Under the pieces are notes generated by a model, which was not told where the DNA came from, did not search any database, and was given only the letters and a program-made list of their open reading frames with translations. A DNA stretch of 64,000 nt. Origin: Aggregatilineales bacterium. Its GTDB lineage: Bacteria > Chloroflexota > Anaerolineae > Aggregatilineales > Phototrophicaceae. The stretch is taken from contig JAUQWZ010000022.1 in assembly GCA_030834905.1 (NCBI GenBank), forward strand, positions 28,335 through 92,334, given 5' to 3'. Shown piece after piece: positions 3 to 56,267 of this stretch; positions within the stretch are counted from its first letter, which is position 1, and the number at the start of each line of letters is the position of its first letter. A program made the translations under genes and the position numbers.

Positions 3-1763
3 CGGGTCTACGACAGCACCATCGTCGGAAACGTCGCCATCAATGGCGGCGGCGGCATCGTCAGCAACGGGGTTCTGGTGTATTTACGCCGCGTCTCTAT
101 TCGCGAAAATTATGCGGGTGGTGGTGCAGGACTCCAGACCGATTTCAGCGGTAGGCTAGATGCTGAATGCGTACAGTTCTGGGATAATTCCAGTGGCTAT
201 GGTGTTGGCGTATTAAGCGGTGCCAGCAGCAACACCAGCGCGCAGGTAAGCATCCATTACAGCAGTTTATATGGGAATCTGACGATCAATAATCCAAATC
301 CTGAAGAAGATATCTTTAACCTGCTGCCCAACAACGTTAGCATACAGGCGCAGCAGAATTGGTGGGGCGCAGATGGAGTACCTGCCGTATTCGACGGGCA
401 AACGGGCGCGTCAATTGACACGTCATCGGCGCTTTCATTCGACCCGACGATTCCCATCAACGGACAATATGCGATTTCCGAATGTGAGCCACAACTGCCG
501 GAAGTGCCGCCAACTCCCACACCTACTCCCACTCCTACCCCAACGGAGACGCCGACGCCCACCTTTACGCCGACACCTGACCCTGCGTTGCCGTATTACG
601 AACGATTCGAAGGACTGATGTTCTGGATTATGTACAATGAAACTTCACAGAATATAGTAGAGGATCAGTTCGACATAGTGGAAACGGCTGCGAACAATGG
701 GTCGCCCACTGATCCTAACAGAGTAGTTCTAGTCCCTTCATCAGCCAGCTTCCCACGAGAACAGCGTGGAGTACGCTATCTCTTCGGGCGCACAATTCTG
801 AATAACATCCCAGACTACGTACCCGGTTCAGAGGCAGCGGGGTATGAAGGAGGTTATGCATATGGGAGAAATTGGGGAGGGTCTATAAACGATCCAAACA
901 ATACGATATGGAGCAGCTATCAAGGATGCCCTGACACACATGGGTGGAACTACAATGGTGGTACGCTTCCGTCGTATAGCAGTATATACAACGGGACTGC
1001 TCTACAGATTTTGGATTGGTTCAGTGATTATGCTAGTTGCCGCGCTGCTGCTAATCCGAACTTTCAACCACATTATCAGATGTTAATCAGCGTTATCGGT
1101 ACGGCTACGCAGCATCATATAGCTAACACTCCCAATCCGGCTGGCAATGCCTATTACATTCGCAATGCGAATAGTTGCTTCGTCTCTGATCCGCCAGGTG
1201 GTGCTTGCATTACAACAAATACAATCCAAGCATGGTGTACAGGGGCAGGTCGTAACTGTAGAAGTGCAAACGTGTACGTAGAAGAAGTATCTACCGGAGC
1301 AGTGGGCGTTACGGTCGCTGATTGGTACAATTACAATCAACTACCAAGTCAGTATAGTACCCCTATTGCTGAACCCCAAAATCTTGTATTCAACCCGACT
1401 TATCTCTTTGATCCGTTGACCTCTGGGAACCCGCAACAGATAACCTACAACTCACAGGTCGGGGTACATTACCATATCAGTACTGGGCTATACGATGTTG
1501 ATAGTCAGGCACGATATTTCCTAATGGGGATAGGAGCTAGCCAGTTCTCTGAAACCATAGAGTCTGCCTTTGCTAGGCACTGGAATCGATTGAACCGGGA
1601 TCGAACTCCGGTAAATCCAGAAACGCTCTATCCAAGCACCTGCATCAATGCGGCAGCCCACATTACCTTTGGTCAAGGTGCATTTCAAACTTGGGCTACC
1701 TACATTTTCCAAGCCGAAACTCAAACACCAGGAGGTGATATATGGTTCTGCGCCGCACCATGA
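3..1763 (+). CDS. 5'-truncated large secreted/surface protein: beta-helix (Pmp-like) repeats, conserved NWWG module, Pro/Thr linker, variable C-terminal domain (candidate polymorphic effector, cassette 1)
   Basis: Frame is open from position 3 (RVYDSTIVGNVAINGGGGIVSNG...), so the gene starts before the window. GG-rich beta-helix-like repeats, PT repeats at ~512-582, stop TGA at 1761-1763 overlaps the next ATG. Confidence 0.8.
   Translation, partial: RVYDSTIVGNVAINGGGGIVSNGVLVYLRRVSIRENYAGGGAGLQTDFSGRLDAECVQFWDNSSGYGVGVLSGASSNTSAQVSIHYSSLYGNLTINNPNPEEDIFNLLPNNVSIQAQQNWWGADGVPAVFDGQTGASIDTSSALSFDPTIPINGQYAISECEPQLPEVPPTPTPTPTPTPTETPTPTFTPTPDPALPYYERFEGLMFWIMYNETSQNIVEDQFDIVETAANNGSPTDPNRVVLVPSSASFPREQRGVRYLFGRTILNNIPDYVPGSEAAGYEGGYAYGRNWGGSINDPNNTIWSSYQGCPDTHGWNYNGGTLPSYSSIYNGTALQILDWFSDYASCRAAANPNFQPHYQMLISVIGTATQHHIANTPNPAGNAYYIRNANSCFVSDPPGGACITTNTIQAWCTGAGRNCRSANVYVEEVSTGAVGVTVADWYNYNQLPSQYSTPIAEPQNLVFNPTYLFDPLTSGNPQQITYNSQVGVHYHISTGLYDVDSQARYFLMGIGASQFSETIESAFARHWNRLNRDRTPVNPETLYPSTCINAAAHITFGQGAFQTWATYIFQAETQTPGGDIWFCAAP
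315..455 (+). repeat. Arm 1, copy 1 (conserved module FNLLPNNVSIQAQQNWWGADGVPAVFDGQTGASIDTSSALSFDPTIP)
   Basis: 315-370 matches 3037-3092 at 54/56 nt; 347-424 matches 7636-7713 at 77/78 nt (manual alignment). Confidence 0.95.
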
Positions 1764-2983
1764 ACATTTTCAAGTTGTTTGCCCTAATAGTCATTTGGCA
1801 AACATTTATACCTTCCGTTGTGGCTCAAAATGCCTCCCTTACCTTTACTGCTTGGAGTCCCGATGGCATATTTCTAGCAGTTACCAGCGGATCGACCGTA
1901 CAAATAGTCGATGTAGCCACAAGTCAACCAACGAATCAACTTTCGGACTTGTCTGAGCAAGTCACTGCATCATTGTGGAGTCCAGACGGGAGCAGACTAG
2001 CGGTTGCAAATGGTTCTACTTTAGAAATATGGCAGCAACCTTGGGATGGGGGTCTTGCAAGCCTTGAAGCGAGATTACAATCTACCGCATACATTCGCTC
2101 AATGGCATGGAATCCGCAAGGTAACCAAATCGCTATCGCCCATGATGCGGTGGAAGTATGGAATTTGGGAACTCGTACTCAGATTTATAGCGTATACGCC
2201 CATAACGGCTTCATCACGCAAATTTCGTGGAGTCCCGATGGGGCACGGTTTGCTACCACGAGTGTAGACAGGAGCGTAAAAGTCTGGGATGCAGCGACAG
2301 GAGCAATATTAAGCACCATGACTGTTGTGCAAAATTCCAATTTGCCCGTATCCGAAATTTTTACAGTCGCCACGTCAGTCTCATGGAGTCCGGTCAATAC
2401 GGAGTTGGTTTTCGGAGCAGAAGATGGGACAACGCGCCTTTGGAATACGGCTCAGTTAACTGGGAGTGAAGTCAGAACATCTGAAAACAGCCCAGGAGTT
2501 TTTCGTGCTAATGAAGAGGCAGTTCTAGCCGTTGATTGGAATCCTACAGGGACAGAAGTCGCCGCTGGTGCTAGGGATGGTATCGTTTCTATCTGGGATA
2601 CAGAAACAGGTGACCAATTACAAACGTTTCAAAGTGATCTCAGCATAAATTCCGTCTCCTACAGTCCATACGGCGGCAGATTGGCAATAAGTGGAAGTTC
2701 ACCGCTGTCACAAGTAGATACCGACCTTTCGATAAACGCTTCTCAATTTCTTGCCAATGGCGCAGTCCAAATCGTTGTCCCCGCACCCTCACTTGAACGG
2801 CTGCAAACGATTGCGGATGCTTGCAACGCGCCTATTGCCATCGAGCAGTCGCTCACTGCCAGCATCCAAGCCGATCAACTCGCGGATGTAGTCGCACAGG
2901 TTGAAGCGCTGCCGGAGAACACCATCCCGCCCGCCTGCGCCGCCGATTTGATCGCGGTAGCAGAAGCGCTGCAAAGCCAGTAG
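1760..2983 (+). CDS. Secreted WD40 beta-propeller protein with conserved helical C-terminal tail (candidate immunity protein 1)
   Basis: ATGA overlap with upstream stop; signal-peptide-like MNIFKLFALIVIWQTFIPSVVA|Q; repeated WSPDG/WD motifs; tail shared with 8888-10096. Confidence 0.9.
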   Translation: MNIFKLFALIVIWQTFIPSVVAQNASLTFTAWSPDGIFLAVTSGSTVQIVDVATSQPTNQLSDLSEQVTASLWSPDGSRLAVANGSTLEIWQQPWDGGLASLEARLQSTAYIRSMAWNPQGNQIAIAHDAVEVWNLGTRTQIYSVYAHNGFITQISWSPDGARFATTSVDRSVKVWDAATGAILSTMTVVQNSNLPVSEIFTVATSVSWSPVNTELVFGAEDGTTRLWNTAQLTGSEVRTSENSPGVFRANEEAVLAVDWNPTGTEVAAGARDGIVSIWDTETGDQLQTFQSDLSINSVSYSPYGGRLAISGSSPLSQVDTDLSINASQFLANGAVQIVVPAPSLERLQTIADACNAPIAIEQSLTASIQADQLADVVAQVEALPENTIPPACAADLIAVAEALQSQ

Positions 2984-3025
2984 CTTCACGCTCACAAAGG
3001 GCGCATCCACGCGGGTGCGCCCGTT
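2906..3025 (+). repeat. Arm 2, copy 1 (WD40 3' end, stop codon and hairpin)
   Basis: 115/120 nt identical to 10019-10138; includes hairpin GGGCGCATCC-ACGC-GGGTGCGCCC at 2999-3022. Confidence 0.95.
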
Positions 3026-3036
3026 TCCCTTGAACA

Positions 3037-3092
3037 TTTAACCTGCTGCCCAACAACGTAAGCATACAGGCGCAGCAGAACTGGTGGGGCGC
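3037..3092 (+). repeat. Arm 1, truncated copy (untranslatable fragment FNLLPNNVSIQAQQNWWGA)
   Basis: 54/56 identical to 315-370; in-frame stops at 3031-3033 and 3100-3102; 3069-3092 is identical to 7636-7659. Confidence 0.95.
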
Positions 3093-3094
3093 TG

Positions 3095-4273
3095 ATGACT
3101 AACTCTGCAATTGAAGACGCTAAACAGGCGGCGCTGTCAGTGCTGCTCCACAATGCTCACGGAGACTATCACGGGCTGCCGCGTACCGCCGGGTGGGGCT
3201 ATGCCGAACCCTACACCCGCGACCTGATGATCGCCAGCCTGGGGATGCTGGTGACCGGCGATCAAACCCTGCTGGCGTCTACGCGGGCGGTTCTGGAAGC
3301 GCTGGCGTCGAACCAGACGCCGCTGGGACACATTCCCGGCTTAGCGCACGATCCCGGCGATCTTGGCTCCAGCGATACGACGCCGCTGTTTCTCATCGGG
3401 CTGGCGCTGTTTCGCGCGGCGGCGGGCGAGGCGCGCTTTCTCTCTGCTGCTGCCGAAAAGGCGCTCACCTGGCTGCGATATCAGAGTCCCGATAACAGCG
3501 GGCTGGTGGCGCAGCAGCCGACCAGCGACTGGCGCGATGAACAGTGGGTGCCGGGCTTTGGGCTGTACGTCAATACGCTGGTCTACATCGCGCTGCGGCT
3601 CTGGGATCGCAGCGAAGAAGCTGACGCGGTGGGGCGGCTCATCAATTTGCCCATCGTCAGGGCGGGCTGGAAGGATGCTCACGTCCACGAAGGCTTAGCC
3701 ATTCCTGACAAGCCTTACTATGCCCTGTGGTCATACAAAGTCCACAACAGCGAGCGCTTTGATTTGCTCGGCAACAGTCTGGCAGTCCTGTCGGGCGCGG
3801 CGTCGCCGGCTAAAGCCAGCCAGATGGTGGACTGGATCGAATCCCAGTGTCAGGCGCTCCAGCGAAACCATGCGCTGGCGGTGAATCTGCCGCCCTGTCT
3901 GTTTCCCTACATTCAGCCCGGCGATGGCGACTGGAACCCGCGTTATCAGCAGTTTAACCAGCCGGGCGAGTATCACAACGGCGGTCTGTGGCCCTTTGCC
4001 ATCGGCTTCTACATCGCCGCGCTGGTCGCTGCCGGACGCGCTGACCTTGCCAGCGACAAGCTTGATCTTCTGACCGAGCTAATCCGCCTCGCGCGGCAGG
4101 TCAACGTCACCTTCGGATTTAATGAGTGGCTGCGGGCGCAGGATGGAACGCCGCGCGGGCAGGACTGGCAGACGTGGTCGGCGGCGATGTATCTGTACGC
4201 GGCGGCGGCGGTTGAAGAAAATCGGACGCCGTTTTTAGACCATCTGCGCGGGCAAAACAGCGCTGCCGGATAA
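3095..4273 (+). CDS. Glycoside hydrolase, (alpha/alpha)6 type (GH100/amylo-alpha-1,6-glucosidase-like)
   Basis: Motifs GWGYAEPYTRD, DWRDE, YHNGGLWPF, QDWQTWSAAMY. Confidence 0.75.
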   Translation: MTNSAIEDAKQAALSVLLHNAHGDYHGLPRTAGWGYAEPYTRDLMIASLGMLVTGDQTLLASTRAVLEALASNQTPLGHIPGLAHDPGDLGSSDTTPLFLIGLALFRAAAGEARFLSAAAEKALTWLRYQSPDNSGLVAQQPTSDWRDEQWVPGFGLYVNTLVYIALRLWDRSEEADAVGRLINLPIVRAGWKDAHVHEGLAIPDKPYYALWSYKVHNSERFDLLGNSLAVLSGAASPAKASQMVDWIESQCQALQRNHALAVNLPPCLFPYIQPGDGDWNPRYQQFNQPGEYHNGGLWPFAIGFYIAALVAAGRADLASDKLDLLTELIRLARQVNVTFGFNEWLRAQDGTPRGQDWQTWSAAMYLYAAAAVEENRTPFLDHLRGQNSAAG

Positions 4274-4326
4274 GCCGAACGGGACGCATCCACACGGATG
4301 CGTCCCATTCAGCGCGTCCTCCAGTT

Positions 4327-4659
4327 TCAGGGGATCTCCGGCGCGTCAGCGTCGTCGTTTTCGAGGAAGTGCTTCAGCCGCACCAGGCGTTCATCCCACT
4401 TGAAGCCGATTTCCTTGATCCATTGATCGACTTCCTTCAGCGGGTCGGGTCTGAAGCTGTAACGTTTTTCACGTCCCGCCTGATAGACGGTGACCAGCCC
4501 GGCATCTTTGAGGATGTGCAGATGCTTGATAATCCCCTGTCGGGTGATCGGGTATTCCTCTGCGAGCTGGGTCGCCGTCCTGGGGCTGTGTTCCGCCAGG
4601 TTCACCAGCAAATCCCGGCGCACCGGGTCAGCCAGCGCGGCGAAAACGGGTCTGTCCAT
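4327..4659 (-). CDS. ArsR/SmtB family transcriptional regulator
   Basis: VFAALADPVRR...ITRQGIIKHLHILKDAGLV; paired with an SRPBCC gene. Confidence 0.9.
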   Translation of the reverse strand: MDRPVFAALADPVRRDLLVNLAEHSPRTATQLAEEYPITRQGIIKHLHILKDAGLVTVYQAGREKRYSFRPDPLKEVDQWIKEIGFKWDERLVRLKHFLENDDADAPEIP

Positions 4660-4822
4660 AGTTCATGCGGCAGGTTTCCGCCCTCCAGATATGATGTCAG
4701 ACTAAAGTATTGTCTGTGGGCGCAGCACTGCTGCGCCCCTGCTTTCAACTTTACACTTGCGACTCAGTACTCTCCTACAGCCGCCGAATGTCTTAAGGTG
4801 CTCGACTCGTTTGGCTAAGCCG

Positions 4823-5749
4823 CTAAAAACCCTGTGGTATCGGCAGGCTGTAGCCCTCGATCACGGCTTTCACGTTCCCCAGCATCATACCAAAGCCGAA
4901 ACTGTTCTGCTCCATATCGGTCCAGCGAATAGCGTCCGGCACCGATTCATAGCCGGAATAGATCAGCGTCAGGCGCGTGCCGCCAGCTTCCTCTTTCAGC
5001 ACCCAGTCGGTGGTATACGATGCTTCTTCGCCTTCCGGCACCGAGCGCGTCATCAGTCGATGAGGCGGATCGACCACTTCGAGGATCTGGACGTACATTT
5101 CTCCACCCGTTTCCGGGTTCTCCACGTAAAGCCGCGCGCCCACGCCCGTCCCCGTCACCTTAAACGTGGTTCCCGGCGCAAACCACTGCTCGATCTGCCC
5201 CGGATCGGTCAGCGCCTGCCACACGCGCTGGCGCGACGCTTTGATCCAGATGCTGCGTTCGAGCGAGACGCTGTCTTTTGATTCGCGCCAGAAGCCCAAC
5301 AGCGGGCTGACATAAGCGTGCGGGAACGGCAGGTCGGCGCTGGCGAGATAGGCTTTCAGGTTTTCCAGCGTCTTTTCCCAGCCAGCCCGGATCTGATCGA
5401 GCCGATCCTCGCGGGCATCTTCCGGCAGCGCTTCAAATCCACTCATGGTCACGGTGACGCGCGTGCCAGCCTGCTCCTCGTCCAGTCTGTAGGTGGTGAT
5501 GATCTGGCGTTCCGGCACGCTGCGCAGGGCAGCTTCGCGCGGCGGGTTCACCAGTTCCAACTGGAACACGTCAATTCCCATCTCTCCCATGTGGATCGTG
5601 ACCTTGCCGCTGTCATCACGGGTCATTTGCGCGCCCGGCAGGTTGGGCACAAACCACTGCGCCACCTGTTCGGGGTTGGTCACCGCTTCCCATACTCGCT
5701 CGCGCGGAGCGCCAATCCAGATGCTGCGTTCAACGGTTATCGTCTGCAC
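4823..5749 (-). CDS. Tandem SRPBCC/AHSA1 domain protein
   Basis: Two repeats of ERSIWI.A.R.RVW.A.T.P.Q..QWF; GTG start with AGGAGG upstream. Confidence 0.9.
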   Translation of the reverse strand: MQTITVERSIWIGAPRERVWEAVTNPEQVAQWFVPNLPGAQMTRDDSGKVTIHMGEMGIDVFQLELVNPPREAALRSVPERQIITTYRLDEEQAGTRVTVTMSGFEALPEDAREDRLDQIRAGWEKTLENLKAYLASADLPFPHAYVSPLLGFWRESKDSVSLERSIWIKASRQRVWQALTDPGQIEQWFAPGTTFKVTGTGVGARLYVENPETGGEMYVQILEVVDPPHRLMTRSVPEGEEASYTTDWVLKEEAGGTRLTLIYSGYESVPDAIRWTDMEQNSFGFGMMLGNVKAVIEGYSLPIPQGF

Positions 5750-5766
5750 GTCCTATGCCTCCTATG

Positions 5767-5784
5767 TGTAACCAAACGGTTGCA
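5767..5784. promoter_or_regulatory. Putative operator of the ArsR-SRPBCC operon
   Basis: Imperfect inverted repeat TGTAACC-N4-GGTTGCA just upstream of the SRPBCC ribosome-binding site. Confidence 0.45.
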
Positions 5785-5931
5785 TATACTGTATTAGAAA
5801 AAGCGTTCTATGTCAAGTCATTCGCCAGGGCAGGTTTCAGCATCGTCGCCCCGGCGTCCGATTCTCGTCACTTGCTCCTAAGCATCTGGTGGCTTAAACT
5901 GTACACAGAGCAGTCTCAGAGAACACGCACT

Positions 5932-7530
5932 ATGATGGCAACACCGCCCGACGACCTGATCGGCAAGACACTTGGACAGTTTGAAATTCTGGACGAAATC
6001 GGACGCGGCGGCATGGCAACCGTTTACCGCGCCCGCCAGCGTTCGATTAATCGCATGGTGGCGGTCAAAGTGCTGCCGCGCGCGCTGCTGCACGACCCCA
6101 GCTTTTACGAGCGCTTCACTCGCGAAGTGGACGTGATCGCCCATCTTGAACACCCGCACATTCTGCCGATTTACGACTATGGCGAAGTTGAGGGCATCCC
6201 CTACATCGCCATGCGCTATCTCGCCGGGGGCAGTCTGGCGCAGGTGATTCGCCGCGGGCTGATGCCGCTGGAGCAGTTGATCAAGCCGTTCTCGCAGATC
6301 GGGCAGGCGCTGGATCACGCGCACCAGCAGGGCGTCATCCATCGCGATCTCAAGCCGGGAAATATCCTGCTCGATGAGCGCGGCAACGCCTACCTGTCCG
6401 ATTTCGGCATCGCCCGCGTCCTCAACAGCAGCCTGACCGGCAGCGCCATCATCGGCACGCCCGCTTACATGAGTCCTGAACAGGCGAACGGCTATCCGCT
6501 GGATGGTCGCTCGGATGTTTACGCGCTGGGCGTGGTGTTGTTCGAGATGATCGCCGGACGCGAGCCGTTTGAAGCCGAAACGCCGGTTGCCATGCTGATG
6601 AAGCACATCAACGAGCCGATGCCTCCTATTCGCCAGTTCCGTCCGGGTACGCCAGAGGCGGTTGAGCAGGTGCTTTTCCGGGCGACGGCGAAACATCCCG
6701 ACCAACGCTTTCCGTCGGCGGGCGATCTGGCGGCTGCCTTCAGCGAAGCGGTCTATCAACCGGCGTCGCGCCCGATGATGCCGCCCATCAATCAGGACGA
6801 TACGCCCACGATGATCCCCGAAGCTGGCTCGGCGGCACGTCTCACGCCGTCGCATCTCACCCCGCCCGCGCAGACCACATCGCCAGCGGATCAGCATCCG
6901 ACCACGTTTGAATCGCACCACCCGGCACAAAGCCGCCTGCCAGCGCTGCTGATCGGGCTGGTTTTGGTGGTCGTCGTGGTTGGCGCGGCGGTGCTGTTCA
7001 TCGCCACCCGCCCGTCGGATATCCCGCCGACTCCCACGCCGCCGGTTGTCGCCCTGCCAACGCCGTTTGCCAACGCGCGGGTGGCTCGTGCCGATACCTA
7101 TACGCTCTCGGTGCCGGATAGCTGGCGGTTCACCGATCTGTCGGCGGACGATGGCGTGCTGACTCACGTCTGGCAGGATGGGCTGGACGCCTACATCGGC
7201 TTATCGCTGATCCCGGCGGAGATAGGCAATCAGGATGCTTTCCGGGGGCAGATCACCGCCTACCTCGCAGACCACTACGCCGAAGACGCCTATACGTTCG
7301 TGGACGAAGCCATCGCGCCGGACGGCACAGTGCGCCGCAGCTACCGCCTGTTTGGGCAGGTACAGCCCGAATTCGCGCCCGGACAGACCGACACCTTCTT
7401 CTTCAACCGCGCGCCCTATTTCGTCGTGCTTGAGCTTTACGCCTCGGACGCATACGGCAGCGACCTCGTGCCGCAGTACCAGCAGGTGCTCGATTCGCTC
7501 CGCATCCTCCCGCAGGTCGAGCAGGGGTAA
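5932..7530 (+). CDS. Membrane-anchored Hanks-type Ser/Thr protein kinase
   Basis: GRGGMATVY, VAVK, HRDLKPGN, DFG, GTPAYMSPE motifs; transmembrane helix and extracellular C-terminal domain. Start taken at MMATPP. Confidence 0.95.
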   Translation: MMATPPDDLIGKTLGQFEILDEIGRGGMATVYRARQRSINRMVAVKVLPRALLHDPSFYERFTREVDVIAHLEHPHILPIYDYGEVEGIPYIAMRYLAGGSLAQVIRRGLMPLEQLIKPFSQIGQALDHAHQQGVIHRDLKPGNILLDERGNAYLSDFGIARVLNSSLTGSAIIGTPAYMSPEQANGYPLDGRSDVYALGVVLFEMIAGREPFEAETPVAMLMKHINEPMPPIRQFRPGTPEAVEQVLFRATAKHPDQRFPSAGDLAAAFSEAVYQPASRPMMPPINQDDTPTMIPEAGSAARLTPSHLTPPAQTTSPADQHPTTFESHHPAQSRLPALLIGLVLVVVVVGAAVLFIATRPSDIPPTPTPPVVALPTPFANARVARADTYTLSVPDSWRFTDLSADDGVLTHVWQDGLDAYIGLSLIPAEIGNQDAFRGQITAYLADHYAEDAYTFVDEAIAPDGTVRRSYRLFGQVQPEFAPGQTDTFFFNRAPYFVVLELYASDAYGSDLVPQYQQVLDSLRILPQVEQG

Positions 7531-7557
7531 TACCGTACCCGCATACCAACCGGACAG

Positions 7558-7590
7558 GAGCCGTCATGAATAATGGACGGCTCTTTTGTT
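7558..7590 (+). terminator. Rho-independent terminator after the kinase, directly upstream of orphan cassette 2
   Basis: GAGCCGTC-N10-GACGGCTC followed by TTTTGTT. Confidence 0.75.
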
Positions 7591-8857
7591 ATGCTGTGAT
7601 TGTGGCAAGCTGGTACCGAATGATGTGACCATTATGGCGCAGCAGAACTGGTGGGGCGCAGATGGAGTACCTGCCGTATTCGACGGGCAAACGGGCGCGT
7701 CAATTGACACGTCGCAGGCGCTTTCGTTTGACCCAACAATACCTAACCCTGTCACTGGACTGTATGACGTGCCGCAGTGTGCGCCTGCAGCTCCAGAAAC
7801 GCCGCCCACGCCCACACCGACCTTTACGCTGACACCGACGCCTACCAATACCCCGACACCGACGAATACGCCGACCTACGCGCCTTCGACCTCTTTAGAC
7901 CTCAATGGCACGAATAGCGGGCTGAAAGCGGTGATCTTCTGGGCGATATTCCATGAGTCCAGTTCAGATAACTTCGATTCGGGTAGTCCCGTTGATAATT
8001 TTGACTTAGGCAACCCTCGATTCGCCAGTTTCCTATTCAATAACCCATATTGCTCACCTGGCAGTGTTCCAGGCGACAATGCCGCTGAATCACCATTCCA
8101 AAATTGGTACATCCGTCACTGTCCATATGATTATCGTTATATGGTTGCTCAGACGATGTTCAATGGATTCTTGAACTATGAACGGCGGTTCGGCGTAAAT
8201 AGCGCATTCGAGTATGCCGAGCAAAACTTCGGTGGCTCGATTGGAAACACCGCTGCTGGTTTATGGCTAATCTCAGATTGCCAGGTAAATCAGTATGGCA
8301 CAAGCTATGCCGCAGCCCGAGTGAGCAGTGGTCAAAGTACCGCCTATGCAAACGCAATCGGATGGCTCACTGAATATATGACCTGCCTAGCTGGTTTGAG
8401 CACTACCGATTACACCCCAATACGGGTACAACGAGCGTACCAGAGTACCATTTGGTCACAGATCAATGTAGCCGTAAATGATTTCTACACTGATCCTCAA
8501 GACTACACAGATGGCGCTTTTCAAGCCAAAGTCATTAATTTCGGAGCAACACGAACACTGGTTACTTGCGTTGGAGGCTGCTATATCCAGGGGACATCAG
8601 GTGTTGTCTACACTTACGAGTCACCACAAGATCAATTTCTTGGTTTTGCGACAACACCAGTCACAAATATAAGTCAAGCAGACGTAACTGATGCATACAA
8701 CACTCACATGACACAAATCAGCAGTTACACTCCAAGTTTCCACTCAGTTGCGCAACCGATTCTGATTTACAGCTATAACAGTGGAAATCATGTTGGTTAC
8801 GTGTGGGAAACAGAAATTTATCAACAAACGACAGATATGTCTCACACCCCTAGGTAG
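7586..8857 (+). CDS. Orphan C-terminal cassette 2: arm 1 module, Pro/Thr linker and variable domain; lacks the N-terminal body (possibly silent)
   Basis: Begins directly with arm 1 (KLVPNDVTIMAQQNWWG...); in-frame stop at 7571-7573; no signal peptide or clear RBS; possible ATG at 7634. Confidence 0.7.
   Translation: MLCCDCGKLVPNDVTIMAQQNWWGADGVPAVFDGQTGASIDTSQALSFDPTIPNPVTGLYDVPQCAPAAPETPPTPTPTFTLTPTPTNTPTPTNTPTYAPSTSLDLNGTNSGLKAVIFWAIFHESSSDNFDSGSPVDNFDLGNPRFASFLFNNPYCSPGSVPGDNAAESPFQNWYIRHCPYDYRYMVAQTMFNGFLNYERRFGVNSAFEYAEQNFGGSIGNTAAGLWLISDCQVNQYGTSYAAARVSSGQSTAYANAIGWLTEYMTCLAGLSTTDYTPIRVQRAYQSTIWSQINVAVNDFYTDPQDYTDGAFQAKVINFGATRTLVTCVGGCYIQGTSGVVYTYESPQDQFLGFATTPVTNISQADVTDAYNTHMTQISSYTPSFHSVAQPILIYSYNSGNHVGYVWETEIYQQTTDMSHTPR
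7636..7743 (+). repeat. Arm 1, copy 3
   Basis: 7636-7713 is 77/78 identical to 347-424; similarity then decays, mostly at third codon positions. Confidence 0.95.
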
Positions 8858-8887: not shown

Positions 8888-10096
8888 ATGAAGAAACCAT
8901 CCTATATTATTTTGCTCATCAACATGATCTTGGTATTCAGTCTTCTAAGTCTCGGCTTAAAAGCTTTTGCTCAGAGTACAAAGGGAGATGTCAGTGCTCT
9001 ATCGTGGAATCAAGATGGGGTGCGGCTCGCTATTGGCTTTGAATCTGGACTAATTGAAGTCGTAAATACACAGACTGGAGAAACGGTATTCACCAACTCG
9101 GCGTTACAACGAGTAGCCTCTTTGGATTGGAGTCCTCTCTATTTAGACTATTTAGCGGTAGGAGGAAACACAGGAAGTCTAGCGGGTACAGTAATTGTTA
9201 TAAACACCCTTTCCAATCAGATTCAATACTCTCTAGAAAGCGGTGAAAGTCTCAGTTCTACCGCGTGGAGTCCTGATGGCACAAAGATTGCAGCAACAAG
9301 TAACATCGTCGGTACACCTATAACTTCAAGGAATGAAGTCCGAGTTTGGGATGCTGGCACAGGAGAGTTATTAACGAATTCGCTGTTCTCCATTGGCCCA
9401 ATCACGTCCATTGCTTGGAGTCCTACTAGTCAGCAGATTGCGGGTTCAACTACTGATCATGTCACGTTGATTTGGGATGTCGCTACGGGAGCGGTCATAC
9501 ATACTCTTACGGGACATACGGACGTAGTAATGTCTGTTGCATGGAGTTCCGACGGTCGTCAGCTAGCTACTACCGGAAGTGTTCTTGACAACACAGTCAG
9601 GATTTGGAACGCAGATACGAGCGAGAACATTTCCTCGTTTCCGAGTAGATTCGGGATAGTGAGATGGAGTGCTGTTGGCAACCTGTTAGCTATTGGCGAG
9701 AGTGGCTCCTTAAGACTCTTGGATGCTGGCACAGGGGAAGAATTTGGATCGATCCAACTGAATGCGGTGAGCCGTGCATTCGCATACAGTCCCTATGGTG
9801 GACGACTTGCATTAGCTGGTTCAGCTCCATCAACTCACACAATGGAGAACGCTGTCCAAACACTTGCCAACGGTGCCGTCCAAATCGTCGTTCCCGTCCC
9901 TTCGCCCGAACGGCTGCAAGCGATTGCCGATGCATGCAACGCGCCTGCCGCTGTCGGGCAATCGCTGACTGCCAGTCTGCAAGCCGACCTACTCAGCAGC
10001 TTCATCGCACAGGTGGAGGCGCTGCCGGAGAACACCATCCCGCCCGCCTGCGCCGCCGATTTGATCGCGGTGGCAGAAGCGCTGCAAAGTCGGTAG
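8888..10096 (+). CDS. Secreted WD40 beta-propeller protein with conserved C-terminal tail (candidate immunity protein 2)
   Basis: AAGGAG RBS; signal peptide ...LKAFA|Q; WD repeats; tail LANGAVQIVVP...ALPENTIPPACAADLIAVAEALQS shared with 1760-2983. Confidence 0.9.
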   Translation: MKKPSYIILLINMILVFSLLSLGLKAFAQSTKGDVSALSWNQDGVRLAIGFESGLIEVVNTQTGETVFTNSALQRVASLDWSPLYLDYLAVGGNTGSLAGTVIVINTLSNQIQYSLESGESLSSTAWSPDGTKIAATSNIVGTPITSRNEVRVWDAGTGELLTNSLFSIGPITSIAWSPTSQQIAGSTTDHVTLIWDVATGAVIHTLTGHTDVVMSVAWSSDGRQLATTGSVLDNTVRIWNADTSENISSFPSRFGIVRWSAVGNLLAIGESGSLRLLDAGTGEEFGSIQLNAVSRAFAYSPYGGRLALAGSAPSTHTMENAVQTLANGAVQIVVPVPSPERLQAIADACNAPAAVGQSLTASLQADLLSSFIAQVEALPENTIPPACAADLIAVAEALQSR

Positions 10097-10138
10097 CATC
10101 ACGCTCACAAAGGGCGCATCCATGCGGGTGCGCCCGTT
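10019..10138 (+). repeat. Arm 2, copy 2
   Basis: 115/120 identical to 2906-3025; hairpin at 10112-10135. Confidence 0.95.
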
Positions 10139-10374: not shown

Positions 10375-10671
10375 ATGCCCGTGAAAATTCGCCCCCTCGG
10401 TGATCGCGTGCTCATAGAGCCGGTCGAGCAGGAAGAGACTATCGCGGGCGGTATGCTGGTGCTGCCAGAAACCGCCAAGGAAAAGCCGCAGCAGGGCAAC
10501 GTCATTGCTGTTGGCGCTGGTCGTCGCGACGACGACGGTGATCGCATTGAGATGGACGTGAAGGCTGGCGATAAGGTGCTGTTCGCCAAATATGCTGGCA
10601 CCGAAGTCAAGCTGGACGGCAAGAAGCTGCTGATCATGAAGGAAACAGACATCCTGGGAATCGTCGAGTAA
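10375..10671 (+). CDS. groES: Co-chaperonin GroES
   Basis: [16 protein letters not shown]...[12 protein letters not shown]; start at ATG 10375 after GAGGT. Confidence 0.98.
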
Positions 10672-10746: not shown

Positions 10747-12381
10747 ATGGCTGCTAAACAACTGACTTTCCGCGAAGAAGCCCGTCGTGGTCTTCAGCGC
10801 GGTGTCGATAAGCTGGCAGAGGCAGTGAGCACCACCCTTGGTCCTAAGGGACGCAATGTGGCGCTCGATAAGAAATTTGGCGCGCCGACCGTGACCCATG
10901 ACGGCGTGACGGTGGCGAAGGAAATCGAACTCGAAGACCCGTATGAGAACATGGGCGCGCAGCTTCTGAAGGAAGCCGCCACCAAGACCAACGACATTGC
11001 CGGTGACGGCACGACCACCGCCACCGTTCTGGCGCAGGCGATTGTCAACGAAGGTCTGAAGAACGTCGCTGCTGGCGCGAACCCGATGCTGCTCAAGCGC
11101 GGCATCATGGCAGCCGCCGAAGCGATTGCCCGCAACATCAAGGAACAGGCGATTCCCATCAGCACCAAGGACGAGATTGCCAACGTTGCCAGCGTTTCGG
11201 CGCAGGACAGCGAAATCGGCAACCTGATCGCCGAAGTGATGGACAAGGTCGGCAAGGACGGCGTGGTCACGGTCGAAGAAAGCCGTGGTCTTGAGTTTGA
11301 AACCGAGTACGTCGAAGGTATGGCGTTTGACCGTGGCTACATCAGCCCCTACTTCATCACCAATCCTGAGGCGATGGAAGCGGTCATCGAAGAGCCGTAC
11401 ATCCTGATCTACGACAAGAAGGTCAGCGCGGCGCAGGATATCGTGCCTCTGCTGGAGAAGATGGTTCAGATCGGCAAGCGCGACATCGTCATCATCGCCG
11501 AAGACGTTGACGGCGAAGCCCTGGCGACGCTGGTGCTGAACAAGCTGCGCGGTATGCTCAACGTGCTGTCGATCAAGGCTCCCGGCTTTGGCGACCGCCG
11601 CAAGGCAATGCTGGCGGACATCGCCACCCTCACCGGCGGTCTGGTCATCAGCGAAGAGACGGGTCGCAAGCTCGAATCGGTCACGCTTCAGGATCTGGGT
11701 CGCGCGGCGAAGGTTGTTGCTACCAAGGACGAGACCACCATCGTGGACGGCGCTGGCGAAGAGAGCGCCATCAAGGGACGCATCGACCAGATCCGCAAGG
11801 AAATCGAACTGAGCACCAGCGACTATGACCGCGAGAAGCTCCAGGAGCGTCTGGCAAAGCTCAGCGGCGGCGTGGCGGTCATCCGCGTGGGCGCGGCGAC
11901 GGAAACCGAACTGAAAGAGAAGAAGCACCGTGTTGAGGACGCGCTGAGCGCGACCCGCGCAGCCGTTGAAGAGGGTATCGTCCCTGGCGGCGGCGTGGCG
12001 CTGATCAACGCGCTGCCCGCGCTCGACAGCCTCAAGTTCGACAACGAGGACGAGAACACGGGTGTCGTCATCGTCCGGCGGGCGCTGGAAGTGCCGATGA
12101 AGAAGATCGCCGCCAATGCCGGTATTGACGGCGCGGTGGTCATTCAGGAAGTGCGCCGCGCGCAGCAGGCGCAGAAGAACCCGAACATCGGCTACAACGT
12201 CATCACCAACGAGTACGGCGACATGATCGCCGCCGGTATTCCTGACCCGGCGAAGGTGACGCGCGGCGCGGTGGAGAACGCGGCTTCGATTGCCGCCATG
12301 ATCCTGACGACCGAAGTGCTGATCACCGATGCGCCGCAGAAGGAAGCCGCTGCGCCGATGCCGCAGATGCCGGAGTATTAA
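10747..12381 (+). CDS. groEL: Chaperonin GroEL
   Basis: [34 protein letters not shown] motifs; AGGAGA RBS. Confidence 0.99.
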
Positions 12382-12446
12382 AGCCAGCCCTCATCCCCAG
12401 CCCCTCTCCCTCAGGTAGAGGGGGAATATGCGGGGGTTTCTAAGGC

Positions 12447-12471
12447 GGACACGACATTGTCGTGTCCCTAC
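12447..12471. repeat. REP-like hairpin, family GGACACGAC-N3-GTCGTGTCC(CTAC)
   Basis: Related copies at 13700-13724, 16177-16199, 19343-19367, 41781-41805, 52784-52808 and 54332-54356, all intergenic. Confidence 0.85.
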
Positions 12472-12544
12472 GGTGAATAACGGCAGGGCGATCTCGAATG
12501 AGGTCGCCCTGTTTGATTCCAGCGTGTCCCTACAGGTGATGGGG

Positions 12545-13675: not shown

Positions 13676-13790
13676 GCCTTTACAGATTCGGGACAGGGCG
13701 GACACCACATTGTCGTGTCCCTACTTGGCAGGCGGACAGTTCAATTCTACACTAAGACGCTTGTGAGCAGAACAGCCTGACGACTGCCCG

Positions 13791-14423: not shown

Positions 14424-14545
14424 TGAGTGACCGAAGGCGCGCGCCGGTGGTTGGGATACGGTTGGGATATCGGTTGAATCGGCGCAGCACGGAAATTTGG
14501 GATATCCTGCCTGTTATCCCAAATTTATCCCAAACAGCGGTCATG

Positions 14546-14572
14546 GTAGGGCGCAGCACGCTGCGCCCCTAC
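14546..14572. repeat. REP-like hairpin, family GGGCGCAGC-N2-3-GCTGCGCCC
   Basis: GTAG...CTAC feet; related copies at 4718-4738, 20066-20094, 21721-21740, 21808-21832, 23401-23427, 56156-56179 and 56221-56244. Confidence 0.85.
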
Positions 14573-14628
14573 GGAATATATCCTCAATGTTCTCCACACC
14601 TACTGATGGGGAATGGGGAAAATCGCGG

Positions 14629-18692: not shown

Positions 18693-19136
18693 ATGCAAAT
18701 CAGCGTGCCGCAGATTTTACTGGTCGAAGACAGCGCCGACGACGAGATCCTGACCCTTCGAGCCTTCAACAAGACGAATATCCGCAATGAAGTCGTGGTG
18801 ACCAGAGACGGTGCCGAAGCGCTCGATTATCTGTTTGCGACCGGAAGTTACGCGGATCGCGATGCCAATGATCTGCCGCATCTGGTTCTGCTTGACCTGA
18901 AGCTGCCGAAGATTGACGGGCTGGAAGTCCTCAGGCGCATTCGCGCTGACGAACGCACGCGGCTGCTGCCGGTCGTCATTCTGACGACCTCGCGCGAGCA
19001 GGAAGACCTGCTGAGCAGCTATTCGCTGGGGGCAAACAGCTATATCCGCAAGCCGGTCGATTTCAACCAGTTCTTCCAGGCGATCCAGCAGGTGGGGCTG
19101 TACTGGCTGGTGCTGAACGAAACGCCGTTTCAGTGA
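18693..19136 (+). CDS. Single-domain response regulator
   Basis: ILLVED, LLDLKLPKIDG, YIRKP. Confidence 0.95.
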   Translation: MQISVPQILLVEDSADDEILTLRAFNKTNIRNEVVVTRDGAEALDYLFATGSYADRDANDLPHLVLLDLKLPKIDGLEVLRRIRADERTRLLPVVILTTSREQEDLLSSYSLGANSYIRKPVDFNQFFQAIQQVGLYWLVLNETPFQ

Positions 19137-19463
19137 GGAAGGACAGCAGCAAAAGTAAGGAACGTAGAAGAAAGTAAAGGAAGTGCTGAGTACCGAGTGC
19201 TGAGGGGCAGCGATCAGCTTCTGTTTTGTCGCCTAGACTGCTGTTGTATTACAAAATAATACGGGTTTTTTCGCAAGGACGCGTGCATACTGCGTATGCT
19301 GCATACTGCGGACTCTTTGTCGTGTCCGTTTTTTGTGGGGGCGGACACGACATTGTCGTGTCCCTACATGTCCCGTATTTAATTATTAAACGGCATAAGC
19401 TGGCGCATATGAGGCGCAGGATACTGCGCCTCTGCTAACGCGGTGTTGATCAGGCGGGAGCGA

Positions 19464-21685: not shown

Positions 21686-22054
21686 TAGTACTGAGTGGAA
21701 AGTTGAAAGTAGAAAGTAGAGGCGCAGCGCTGCTGCGCCCACAGGCATCAACCTAAGACATTGGGCGGCTGAGTACTAAGTTGCAAGTGAAAAGTTGAAA
21801 GTGGAAAGTAGGGGCGCAGCATTGCTGCGCCCATGCGTACCAGGTTAAGGAATTCAGCAGAATATTCTGCCCGCGCCGCCAGACAATAAATTGTCCGGCT
21901 CCGAAAAGACAAGCACACTAAAGGTGCTGTTTTGAGTCTCTTTAGCAGACTTGTCTTTTCGGAGCCGTAGGTTTTAACCTCCGACGCCAAAACAGATCGC
22001 CTTTGCAAGTAAAAACGGCTCAACTTGATGCGCAGGGGGTGTTCATAACCCGCG

Positions 22055-41773: not shown

Positions 41774-41827
41774 AAATGACGGACACGACAATGTCGTGTC
41801 CCTACGGCGTCCGTTGGGGGAAACGAA

Positions 41828-56036: not shown

Positions 56037-56267
56037 CAGGCAACTTTCGCAGCAGGAAATCGTGAATTTCCATGCTACAGGAAAACGTCAACTTGCACTA
56101 CTCGACTCGCAAAATTGGCGCGGGTTAGCGTGGTGGGTTAAGAAAGAATGAGAGAGGGCGCAGCACGCCGCGCCCCTACGGGTGGTAATTTGTGACGCGG
56201 GATTAAGAGCGAACAAGAGAGGGCGCAGCACGCTGCGCCCCTACGGATGGCAATGTGTGACGTGGGG

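Follow-up and report, generated by a model that had tools for sequence, protein, structure and literature searches.

Orphan toxin/immunity modules have been described for several bacterial systems. In Salmonella, rhs-main and rhs-orphan share 522 bp at 95% identity, which permits their fusion after locus duplication (PMC3967940), and the maf islands of Neisseria are a further example (PMC4287609). For the effector/immunity arrays of Vibrio cholerae's type VI secretion system (T6SS), it is reported that they grow as new modules arrive and displace older ones downstream (PMC5361080). Here we describe a locus for a polymorphic secreted protein, found in a Chloroflexota-type bacterium that has not been cultured, which appears to have been partly doubled, each copy then having lost a different part. 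It lies at the left end of the window, by which we mean the whole stretch of 64,000 nucleotides that was analysed (G000:C56:28335-92334), from a 5.29-Mb, 63-contig metagenome-type assembly. A sequence-only reading of this DNA had drawn attention to a 4.5-kb block of unrelated genes between identical 24-bp direct repeats, and had proposed that the block was integrated as a circle by a single crossover.

On balance, comparison of the sequences leads us to favour a different history, in which the locus consists of two diverged tandem copies of one unit with reciprocal losses, and the 4.5-kb "insert" would be mostly resident chromosome. The locus is bounded by conserved amylase, HpcH and PNPOx genes on one side and by groES-groEL on the other (groES at 10375, groEL at 10748, with a conserved groES upstream region from ~10211). 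It contains a full-length main gene and two cassettes of a variable domain and a WD40 partner gene, and is marked by two conserved segments, arm 1, whose core is the 24-bp repeat, and arm 2. In window coordinates, the features on which the argument rests are the following.

748 nt upstream of the window (G000:C56:27587) to 1763, plus strand: main gene, carrying arm 1 copy 1.
315-454, plus strand: copy 1 of arm 1, within the full-length main gene, core at 347-370.
1742-2983: WD40-1 partner gene for a secreted WD40 protein, following the main gene.
2735-3025, plus strand: arm 2 of cassette 1, the conserved WD40-1 tail with terminator hairpin 2999-3022.
3037-3097, plus strand: arm-1 stump of 61 nt, FNLLPNNVSIQAQQNWWGA, core at 3069-3092.
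5868-7530, plus strand: unit of the Ser/Thr kinase (STK; coding sequence 5932-7530), with conserved promoter and 5' leader at 5868-5931.
7510-7600, plus strand: STK 3' end and terminator, copy B, 92% identical to a relic upstream of the window; the terminator is conserved in a relative (contig L078).
7586-8857: orphan CT2 frame, headed by arm 1 copy 3.
7604-7743, plus strand: arm 1 copy 3, heading the orphan CT2 frame, core at 7636-7659.
7607-7635, plus strand: diverged arm-1 lead KLVPNDVTI, whose next codon, M, extends into the core; identity to copy 1 is 60%.
7636-7743, plus strand: core copy 3 and the 3' part of arm 1, matching copy 1 at 77/79 nt before the match decays.
8888-10096, plus strand: WD40-2 partner gene, with arm 2 and its hairpin at 9848-10138.

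The kinase within the block is the orthologue of a kinase that follows PNPOx in relatives. In seven genomes of the genus, an STK orthologue (50-80% amino acid identity) lies directly after amylase, HpcH-type aldolase and PNPOx, the three genes that here precede the main gene. In a large protein collection, the two nearest kinases are 72% identical to STK. Of the contigs that carry them, the closest (L079) has the order PNPOx-STK-WD40(-)-APH(-)-groES within 4.2 kb, a second (L078) reads STK-terminator-HicB-APH(-)-groES-groEL, and in genome G008 STK is followed by an ALTTAQ-repeat protein and then by groES-groEL. This 739-aa protein was considered as a homologue of the main gene and rejected because of its repeats. 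From the synteny in relatives we deduce an ancestral backbone PNPOx-STK-[small variable island]-groESL of ~4 kb; the interval from PNPOx to groES is 13 kb here as compared to these ~4 kb. Judged by gene order, the kinase is the ancestral neighbour of the locus. About five tandem 16-nt units (GCATTCGCAGGATGCC) were also seen upstream of the kinase promoter in the nearest JGI relative (L078:1000-1090).

A second trace of the kinase was found outside the window. A DNA search matched window positions 7510-7597 to C56:27357-27443, which is 150 nt upstream of the main-gene start. The complete relic (C56:27357-27448, equivalent to L004:19023-19114, ~0.9 kb upstream of window base 1) is 92 nt long and consists of the last STK codons and the terminator; 44 nt of it are fully identical to the copy in the window. 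The match stops a few bases past the terminator, where the relic adjoins the AT-rich promoter region of the main gene. Its encoded tail, ITPQAEQG*, is closer to the tails of the relatives' kinases than is that of the full STK, ILPQVEQG*, and the relic is therefore a separate diverged allele and not a fresh copy. In the 40 nt preceding it, the PNPOx-STK spacer of L079 can be aligned until shortly ahead of the -35 box, and upstream of the 92 bp no longer STK relic was found, the local score being the same as for shuffled sequence. The relic together with the old PNPOx-STK spacer indicates that one STK copy was deleted in place, from the promoter/-35 box to nine codons before the stop. In addition, the main gene follows the relic terminator just as the KLVPN arm follows the terminator of the full STK, and this parallel order points to two copies of one unit.

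Two other candidates were considered for this region. The 12-bp repeat GTTTATCACGCC has three copies in the genome, two of which (L004:17379-17390 and 18987-18998) flank a 1.6-kb block with an alpha/beta hydrolase gene and an open reading frame (ORF) without homologue in 51 genomes of the genus. Its interpretation as a target duplication is weakened by the L079 spacer, which has two similar motifs around a hairpin resembling repetitive extragenic palindromes (REP), and the pair may be ancestral instead. A single-point insertion of 6.9 kb in the PNPOx-STK spacer is doubtful, as the spacer's promoter-proximal part seems to have been retained by both copies.

According to the history that we favour, the unit would have comprised the PNPOx-STK spacer, STK, its terminator, the main gene for a secreted beta-helix protein, arm 1, a variable domain with its WD40 partner, and arm 2. 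Two copies would have come to lie head to tail through one or more joins of a non-homologous or unequal kind, one of them being either a foreign allele taken up from a related strain or an old duplicate. Copy 1 would have lost STK by the deletion in place and kept the main gene, cassette 1 and the following orphan slot. Copy 2 would have kept STK with its promoter and terminator, but 1.2 kb at the 5' end of its main gene would have gone. Its arm 1, a diverged one (KLVPNDVTIM...), would thereby abut the STK terminator and head orphan cassette 2. Behind cassette 1, the orphan slot would have been gutted, with the stumps 3037-3097 and 4252-4307 left behind. Gene conversion may have homogenised short tracts, namely 44 nt of the terminator and 79 nt of arm 1. 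The joining, the reciprocal loss and the local gene conversion are steps that we infer, while the anatomy of the locus and its synteny can be read directly, as can the relic, the hairpin stump and the microhomologies described below.

Arm 1 occurs in three copies in the entire 5.29-Mb genome, all of them at the present locus. The 24-mer is identical (24/24) at 3069-3092 and 7636-7659, for which shuffles of the window gave no match, and it recurs with one mismatch (T for C) at 347-370; both flanking copies thus carry C where copy 1 has T. The core encodes AQQNWWGA in frame and is located within a 79-nt tract that is nearly identical between copies 1 and 3, and in distant homologues from the genus the beta-helix ends with NWWGA. 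That the repeats are identical would be explained by their coding for AQQNWWGA, the motif that is best conserved in the domain, and by their position in a homogenised tract. When the stump 3037-3097 is compared to copy 1, the lead matches at 31/32 and the core at 23/24 positions; after GCT GAT G, which corresponds to GCA GAT G in arm 1, it becomes the gene for a glycoside hydrolase (GH). Copy 3 matches at 18/30 positions of the lead (7607-7636) and at 23/24 of the core; the 55 nt that follow agree at 54/55, and after them identity is 22/29, falling further on.

Several details of the sequence-only reading were confirmed at this point. Joining 3068 to 7636 does rebuild arm 1, whose start is then 14 nt away from cassette 1's arm-2 hairpin, on its downstream side, and the peptide KLVPNDVTIM is homologous to NLLPNNVSIQ (ungapped 18/30 nt, P ~2e-4). 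As 7 of the 12 nucleotide differences are at third codon positions, the arm-1 lead must have diverged as coding sequence, and we regard the protein-constrained homology of the two peptides as real. The "weak inverted repeat" that had been pointed out in the core proved not to be notable (folding z-scores of -0.4 and -2.2). Truncation of the arm anywhere 3' of the core leaves a direct repeat with cassette 2, and therefore the repeat needs no special mechanism. From their sequence context, the two 24-bp repeats look like the part of arm 1 that has been kept both by the stump of the gutted slot and by the truncated arm of cassette 2. A filler of ~6 nt lies between the STK terminator flank and the diverged arm-1 lead.

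The left part of the block is occupied by the GH gene and by what precedes and follows it.

3093-3098, plus strand: left junction J1, GC/T/GATG, a 2-7-nt microhomology joining arm 1 to the native GH start region.
3095-4273, plus strand: GH, a GH100/GDE_C-like hydrolase without signal peptide, with its native start codon at 3095 (ATG).
4252-4307, plus strand: arm-2-like stump, consisting of the CGCGG microhomology (J3), then AGCGCTGC, then the hairpin 4282-4307.

GH orthologues were found in three of the 51 genomes (G065, G042 and G041), where they never adjoin ArsR, SRPBCC or STK genes. At J1 both parents can be recognised: arm 1 reads GGGCGC-A-GATGG and the native GH of G065 reads GCGTGC-T-GATGG, while the product is GGGCGC-T-GATGA. 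The G065 orthologue reads GTGCTGATGG at this place, and the GH of the window is without an upstream region of its own. At its C-terminus it has six extra codons compared to the orthologues, starting at a CGCGG that is present in arm 2 too, and in arm 2, as in the GH tail, CGCGG is followed by AGCGCTGC. The orthologues stop 1-2 codons past ...LRG and have no hairpin there. Just after the GH stop, the hairpin 4282-4307 (-25 kcal/mol) contains a 16-nt motif, GCATCCACRCGGRTGC, that is common to both arm-2 hairpins, the one behind WD40-2 being at 10112-10135. Within one mismatch this motif has four sites genome-wide, three of which are the hairpins behind WD40-1, WD40-2 and GH; the fourth, on contig C20, lies within the coding sequence for a release factor, forms no hairpin and is attributed to chance. 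The same hairpin is found behind WD40 genes in another species (G022, contig C580), which assigns it to the 3' end of the WD40 gene. With an arm-2 stump after GH, the partner of the arm-1 stump is 1.2 kb away and is not the arm piece at a distance of 4.5 kb. Microhomology is present at both J1 (2-7 nt) and J3 (CGCGG). Judging from these junctions, a single foreign ORF, GH, fills a gutted orphan slot between an arm-1 and an arm-2 stump. It would have replaced the content of the slot through two microhomology joins, at its ATG and just before its native stop, for which one double template switch suffices. By its position, GH would be readable only from the cassette-1 operon, through the arm-2 hairpin.

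The stem of the hairpin behind GH differs from the other two copies and still folds fully paired. In the other species with this hairpin, two WD40 partner genes are arranged in tandem (L018, G022:C580, 4420-6894, minus strand) with no variable-domain gene between them; both end in an arm-2 tail (76-77% DNA identity to the window) with the hairpin, and the tandem has the look of an array made up solely of partner genes. In G041, the GH orthologue (L059, G041:C89, 8317-9241) is split over three frames and is probably a pseudogene, and a paralogous kinase gene on the opposite strand adjoins it.

Between the GH hairpin and the kinase unit lies a segment with two genes on the minus strand.

4327-4659, minus strand: ArsR-family regulator, whose orthologue in G017 adjoins SRPBCC.
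4823-5749, minus strand: double AHSA1/SRPBCC protein, with its native conserved promoter and operator to ~5817.
5818-5868: join of the SRPBCC promoter region to the STK unit, located to this interval, the exact base not being placed.

The interval of the join follows from the SRPBCC promoter and operator, which extend to ~5817, and from the STK promoter, which begins at 5868. In our proposal, ArsR-SRPBCC would be accessory DNA between the gutted slot and copy 2. SRPBCC is found in 6 of the 51 genomes, and ORF Y2, which lies upstream of the relic, in none. A perfect 12-nt inverted repeat (4220-4231/5852-5863, AATCGGACGCCG/CGGCGTCCGATT) around the hairpin, ArsR and SRPBCC was rejected as being at chance level, with ~0.7 such pairs expected. 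The four genes of the block had been named correctly in the sequence-only reading (GH100/GDE_C-like hydrolase, ArsR/HTH_20, double AHSA1/SRPBCC protein and a protein with a Pkinase domain). They are single-copy in the genome. The notion of a coherent cargo of unrelated genes does not hold: STK is an ancestral neighbour, GH sits between cassette stumps, and the parts GH, ArsR-SRPBCC and STK are never linked elsewhere in the genomes of the genus. That the cargo might be the ancestral resident in relatives applies to STK and neither to GH nor to ArsR-SRPBCC.

Outside the block, the two cassettes are diverged homologues along their entire length. The product of the main gene has 836 aa, with a signal peptide, a short right-handed beta-helix part, the NLLPNNVSIQAQQNWWGADGVPAVF segment, a Pro/Thr (PT) linker and a low-GC variable C-terminal domain. 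Arm 2 consists of the last 290 nt of the WD40-1 gene and the terminator hairpin, and recurs behind WD40-2 at 9848-10138. The variable domains and WD40 partners go down to 37-38% identity while the arms remain at 78-100%, a sharp transition from conserved to variable sequence, and exact repeats of 44, 50 and 66 bp are present within the locus. GC content is host-like in the block (0.56-0.65) and 10-20 points lower in the cassettes (0.42-0.53). Neither C-terminal domain gave a match to Pfam. The locus has the composition of an orphan-module array, with a main gene, a variable transition and a partner gene, followed by 5'-truncated modules without promoter, and arm 1 and arm 2 are true module borders.

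In genomes G007 and G016, domains with 44-48% identity to CT1, followed by WD40 genes, were detected (L060, G007:C204, and L061, G016:C5). They sit behind N-terminal parts without the NWWG motif, and by this comparison the CT1-type module is one that has been shuffled between different carrier proteins. Several families of REP-like palindromes (GGACACGACATTGTCGTGTCC and GGGCGCAGCACGCTGCGCCCCTACGG types) are scattered through the intergenic regions of the window (12443-12474, 13696-13727, 19339-19370 and 41777-41808; 14533-14575 and 56140-56247; 21694-21854).

The sequence-only reading had allowed for an assembly chimera. Independently assembled Logan contigs were retrieved by exact-protein look-ups, from separate runs of one study (SRR25397367 to SRR25397372). 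They are 100% identical to window 2929-7583, unbroken, and span arm 2, the arm-1 stump, the GH junction, the hairpin, ArsR-SRPBCC and STK into the terminator. Their ends coincide with points where 31-mers become repeated (arm 2 and terminator). By several independent contigs, the left junction and the interior of the block hence represent real molecules. The CT2 product from the ATG at 7634 gave no record in the exact-protein look-up.

The circle proposed in the sequence-only reading would have been a 4.57-kb molecule [core-GH-ArsR-SRPBCC-STK-terminator-diverged lead] that entered, through one homologous crossover within the 24-bp core, an orphan arm 1 which until then had been intact behind cassette 1. 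A linear variant would combine homology in arm 1 at one end with the microhomology at the GH ATG at the other, by homology-facilitated illegitimate recombination. We consider these possibilities together to be rather unlikely. The flanking 24-mers are indeed identical, both with C at the position where copy 1 has T, the block genes have no second copy in the genome, and the inserted arm lead has diverged in a coding-type manner. The flanks are hybrid, with 31/32 upstream of the core and GH thereafter on the left, and 60% upstream and 54/55 downstream of the core on the right. Two independently truncated arms together with gene conversion would give this pattern equally well. What stands of the circle is the diverged second arm 1, the repeat at each end and flanks of the kind that a crossover inside the 24-mer would also leave; what does not is a coherent mobile unit or one coherent donor molecule. 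The donor would have needed an arm-2 hairpin stump upstream of STK, a position that does not arise naturally where the ancestral order STK-terminator-main gene-cassettes holds, and its arm-1 piece of just ~55 bp would have been fused illegitimately to the GH ATG regardless. Because J1 has its microhomology at the GH start codon, an illegitimate join is required in any model. A resident STK would have been lost and a second one re-acquired. A length of 24 bp is at the lower limit for RecA-type exchange, which counts against a crossover in the core, and exact-pattern scans of the genome and of public collections revealed no empty site, no circle junction and no second arm-1 locus. A larger molecule is decidedly improbable: an 8.5-kb unit [main gene-arm1-cassette 1-slot with GH-ArsR-SRPBCC-STK] that recombined by a single crossover in the 44-bp identity of the STK terminator with a decayed resident [relic-terminator-KLVPN arm-cassette 2], the junction of arm stump and GH being the closure of the circle. 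The terminator copies are hybrid too, with different flanks on both sides of the 44-nt identical core, a homology of 44-92 bp is a better substrate than one of 24 bp, STK-terminator-main gene is the native order, and relic and spacer are at the ancestral position of STK. But the near-identity of copies 1 and 3 (77/79 nt) is left unexplained, and the donor must already have had GH and ArsR-SRPBCC upstream of STK.

It is very unlikely that the arrangement is an artefact, in which two strain alleles of one locus would have been concatenated at short repeats. Such an error is suggested by the metagenome-type assembly in 63 contigs, by the exact repeats of 44, 50 and 66 bp and by a right junction taken from the genome assembly alone; it is countered by the unbroken contigs from several runs, and as those assemblies used a k-mer longer than 24 nt, the 24-mer cannot have generated a false path. 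Site-specific insertion (integron-like, or at an att site of a phage or an integrative and conjugative element) and a transposon with a 24-bp target duplication have next to no probability, having in their favour the identical direct repeats at both ends and nothing else. As the sequence-only reading had stated for the window, there is no recombinase: tyrosine and serine types are absent from the whole 93.5-kb contig, where transposases were not screened (PF00589 and PF00239 have 7 and 9 matches in the genome and none on C56). The four proteins of the block contain no transposase domain, and no terminal inverted repeats that pair the block ends were found. The core has no notable fold, does not recur elsewhere and is in-frame coding sequence for a conserved motif. 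Exact scans for the 24-mer core and for the 27-nt terminator hairpin, and a scan with the degenerate pattern AQQNWWGADG, gave no match in 185,579 species genomes and 241 million metagenome records, and for the arm-1 protein segment (main-protein residues 330-440) a set of 5.8 billion proteins contained no homologue. With no other arm-1 site in the genome or in public collections, the suggestion that arm 1 is a general hotspot which also moves bystander genes is unsupported.

There are also points that weigh against two tandem copies with reciprocal losses. Identity jumps from 60% to 100% precisely where the 24-mer begins on its left, and the stump stops just past its right edge. A crossover inside the 24-mer would leave this signature, for which our reading has to invoke gene conversion or motif conservation. 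Divergence between the copies is uneven (spacer ~60%, STK tail 81%, terminator 92-100%, arm lead 60%, core and 3' part 77/79), and several recombination events must therefore be assumed. Both orphan arm pieces, the stump and copy 3, begin at the same point of arm 1, their 5' limits being at most 3 nt apart, which is not what random deletion in the main gene predicts. Beyond the hairpin, the similarity of the GH tail to arm 2 is only modest, with a score of 42-44 that is equalled at a few GC-rich sites of the window. The right junction (7583-7650) is represented in the genome assembly only, and the order of events cannot be reconstructed, with the closest relative at only 72% STK identity. The uneven divergence (60% to 100%) and the coinciding 5' limits of the orphan arms are not explained well by any model. 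A recombinase-independent capture platform, where short homologies at arm 1, right behind the AQQNWWGA core, and at the arm-2 tail let an unrelated ORF replace the content of a silent slot from start to stop, seems quite unlikely to us. If it were true, the core would also support exchange with other copies of the locus, and bystander genes such as GH would be moved and put under the transcription of the cassette locus.

Under the favoured history of tandem copies, orphan slots can be gutted and refilled. CT2 has been placed behind the kinase terminator without a start signal, and the identity of 347-425 to 7636-7714 (77/79 nt) would be the sole remaining substrate for a switch to it. Such an exchange would fuse the main gene to CT2, and it would delete cassette 1, GH, ArsR-SRPBCC and the sole kinase copy. 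Short identical repeats around foreign-looking genes invite a mobile-element reading, but synteny, relic and hairpin stump tell otherwise, and the case is mostly a caution against such readings of short direct repeats. The locus is neither an integron nor a transposon nor an integrative element. We regard it as an ordinary though intricate rearrangement, the curious detail of which is the capture of the GH ORF, from start to stop, in a cassette slot.

How does the locus compare to the known systems? Campbell-type integration shares with it the identical end repeats and, in appearance, the hybrid flanks, but here the repeat has 24 bp and the insert is a mosaic of a slot remnant, accessory genes and an ancestral neighbour. 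The 2-7 nt microhomologies (GC/T/GATG, CGCGG) and the filler of ~6 nt resemble illegitimate recombination (for the term see PMC6382021), although, in contrast to its homologyfacilitated form, none of the sequence can be assigned as an anchor region. Tandem duplication followed by reciprocal (random) loss, a process described for changes in gene order and for duplicated loci of bacteria, is matched by a copy 1 without kinase and a copy 2 without main gene, where relics (the 92-bp STK end and the arm stumps) mark the losses, and by a net swap in the order of STK and main gene. Divergence between the copies is far too uneven (60% to 100%) for one simple duplication within the genome in recent times, and one copy may be a foreign allele. 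Unlike in the T6SS arrays of V. cholerae, whole locus copies that include the flanking kinase end would have been duplicated here, and not modules alone. In its architecture, the locus is like the orphan toxin/immunity modules behind Rhs, CdiA and MafB: here too, there is a secreted full-length protein with a variable C-terminus and a downstream partner gene, and promoterless 5'-truncated modules keep a conserved piece that would permit homologous exchange with the main gene. In contrast to the 522 bp of the Salmonella rhs genes, however, the shared arms measure only 61 and ~80-110 bp. Unlike in these systems, a secreted WD40 propeller is the putative partner and a linked secretion system is lacking; moreover, one of the orphan slots is occupied by a cytoplasmic hydrolase that is unrelated, and 3.3 kb of resident genes lie between the slots.

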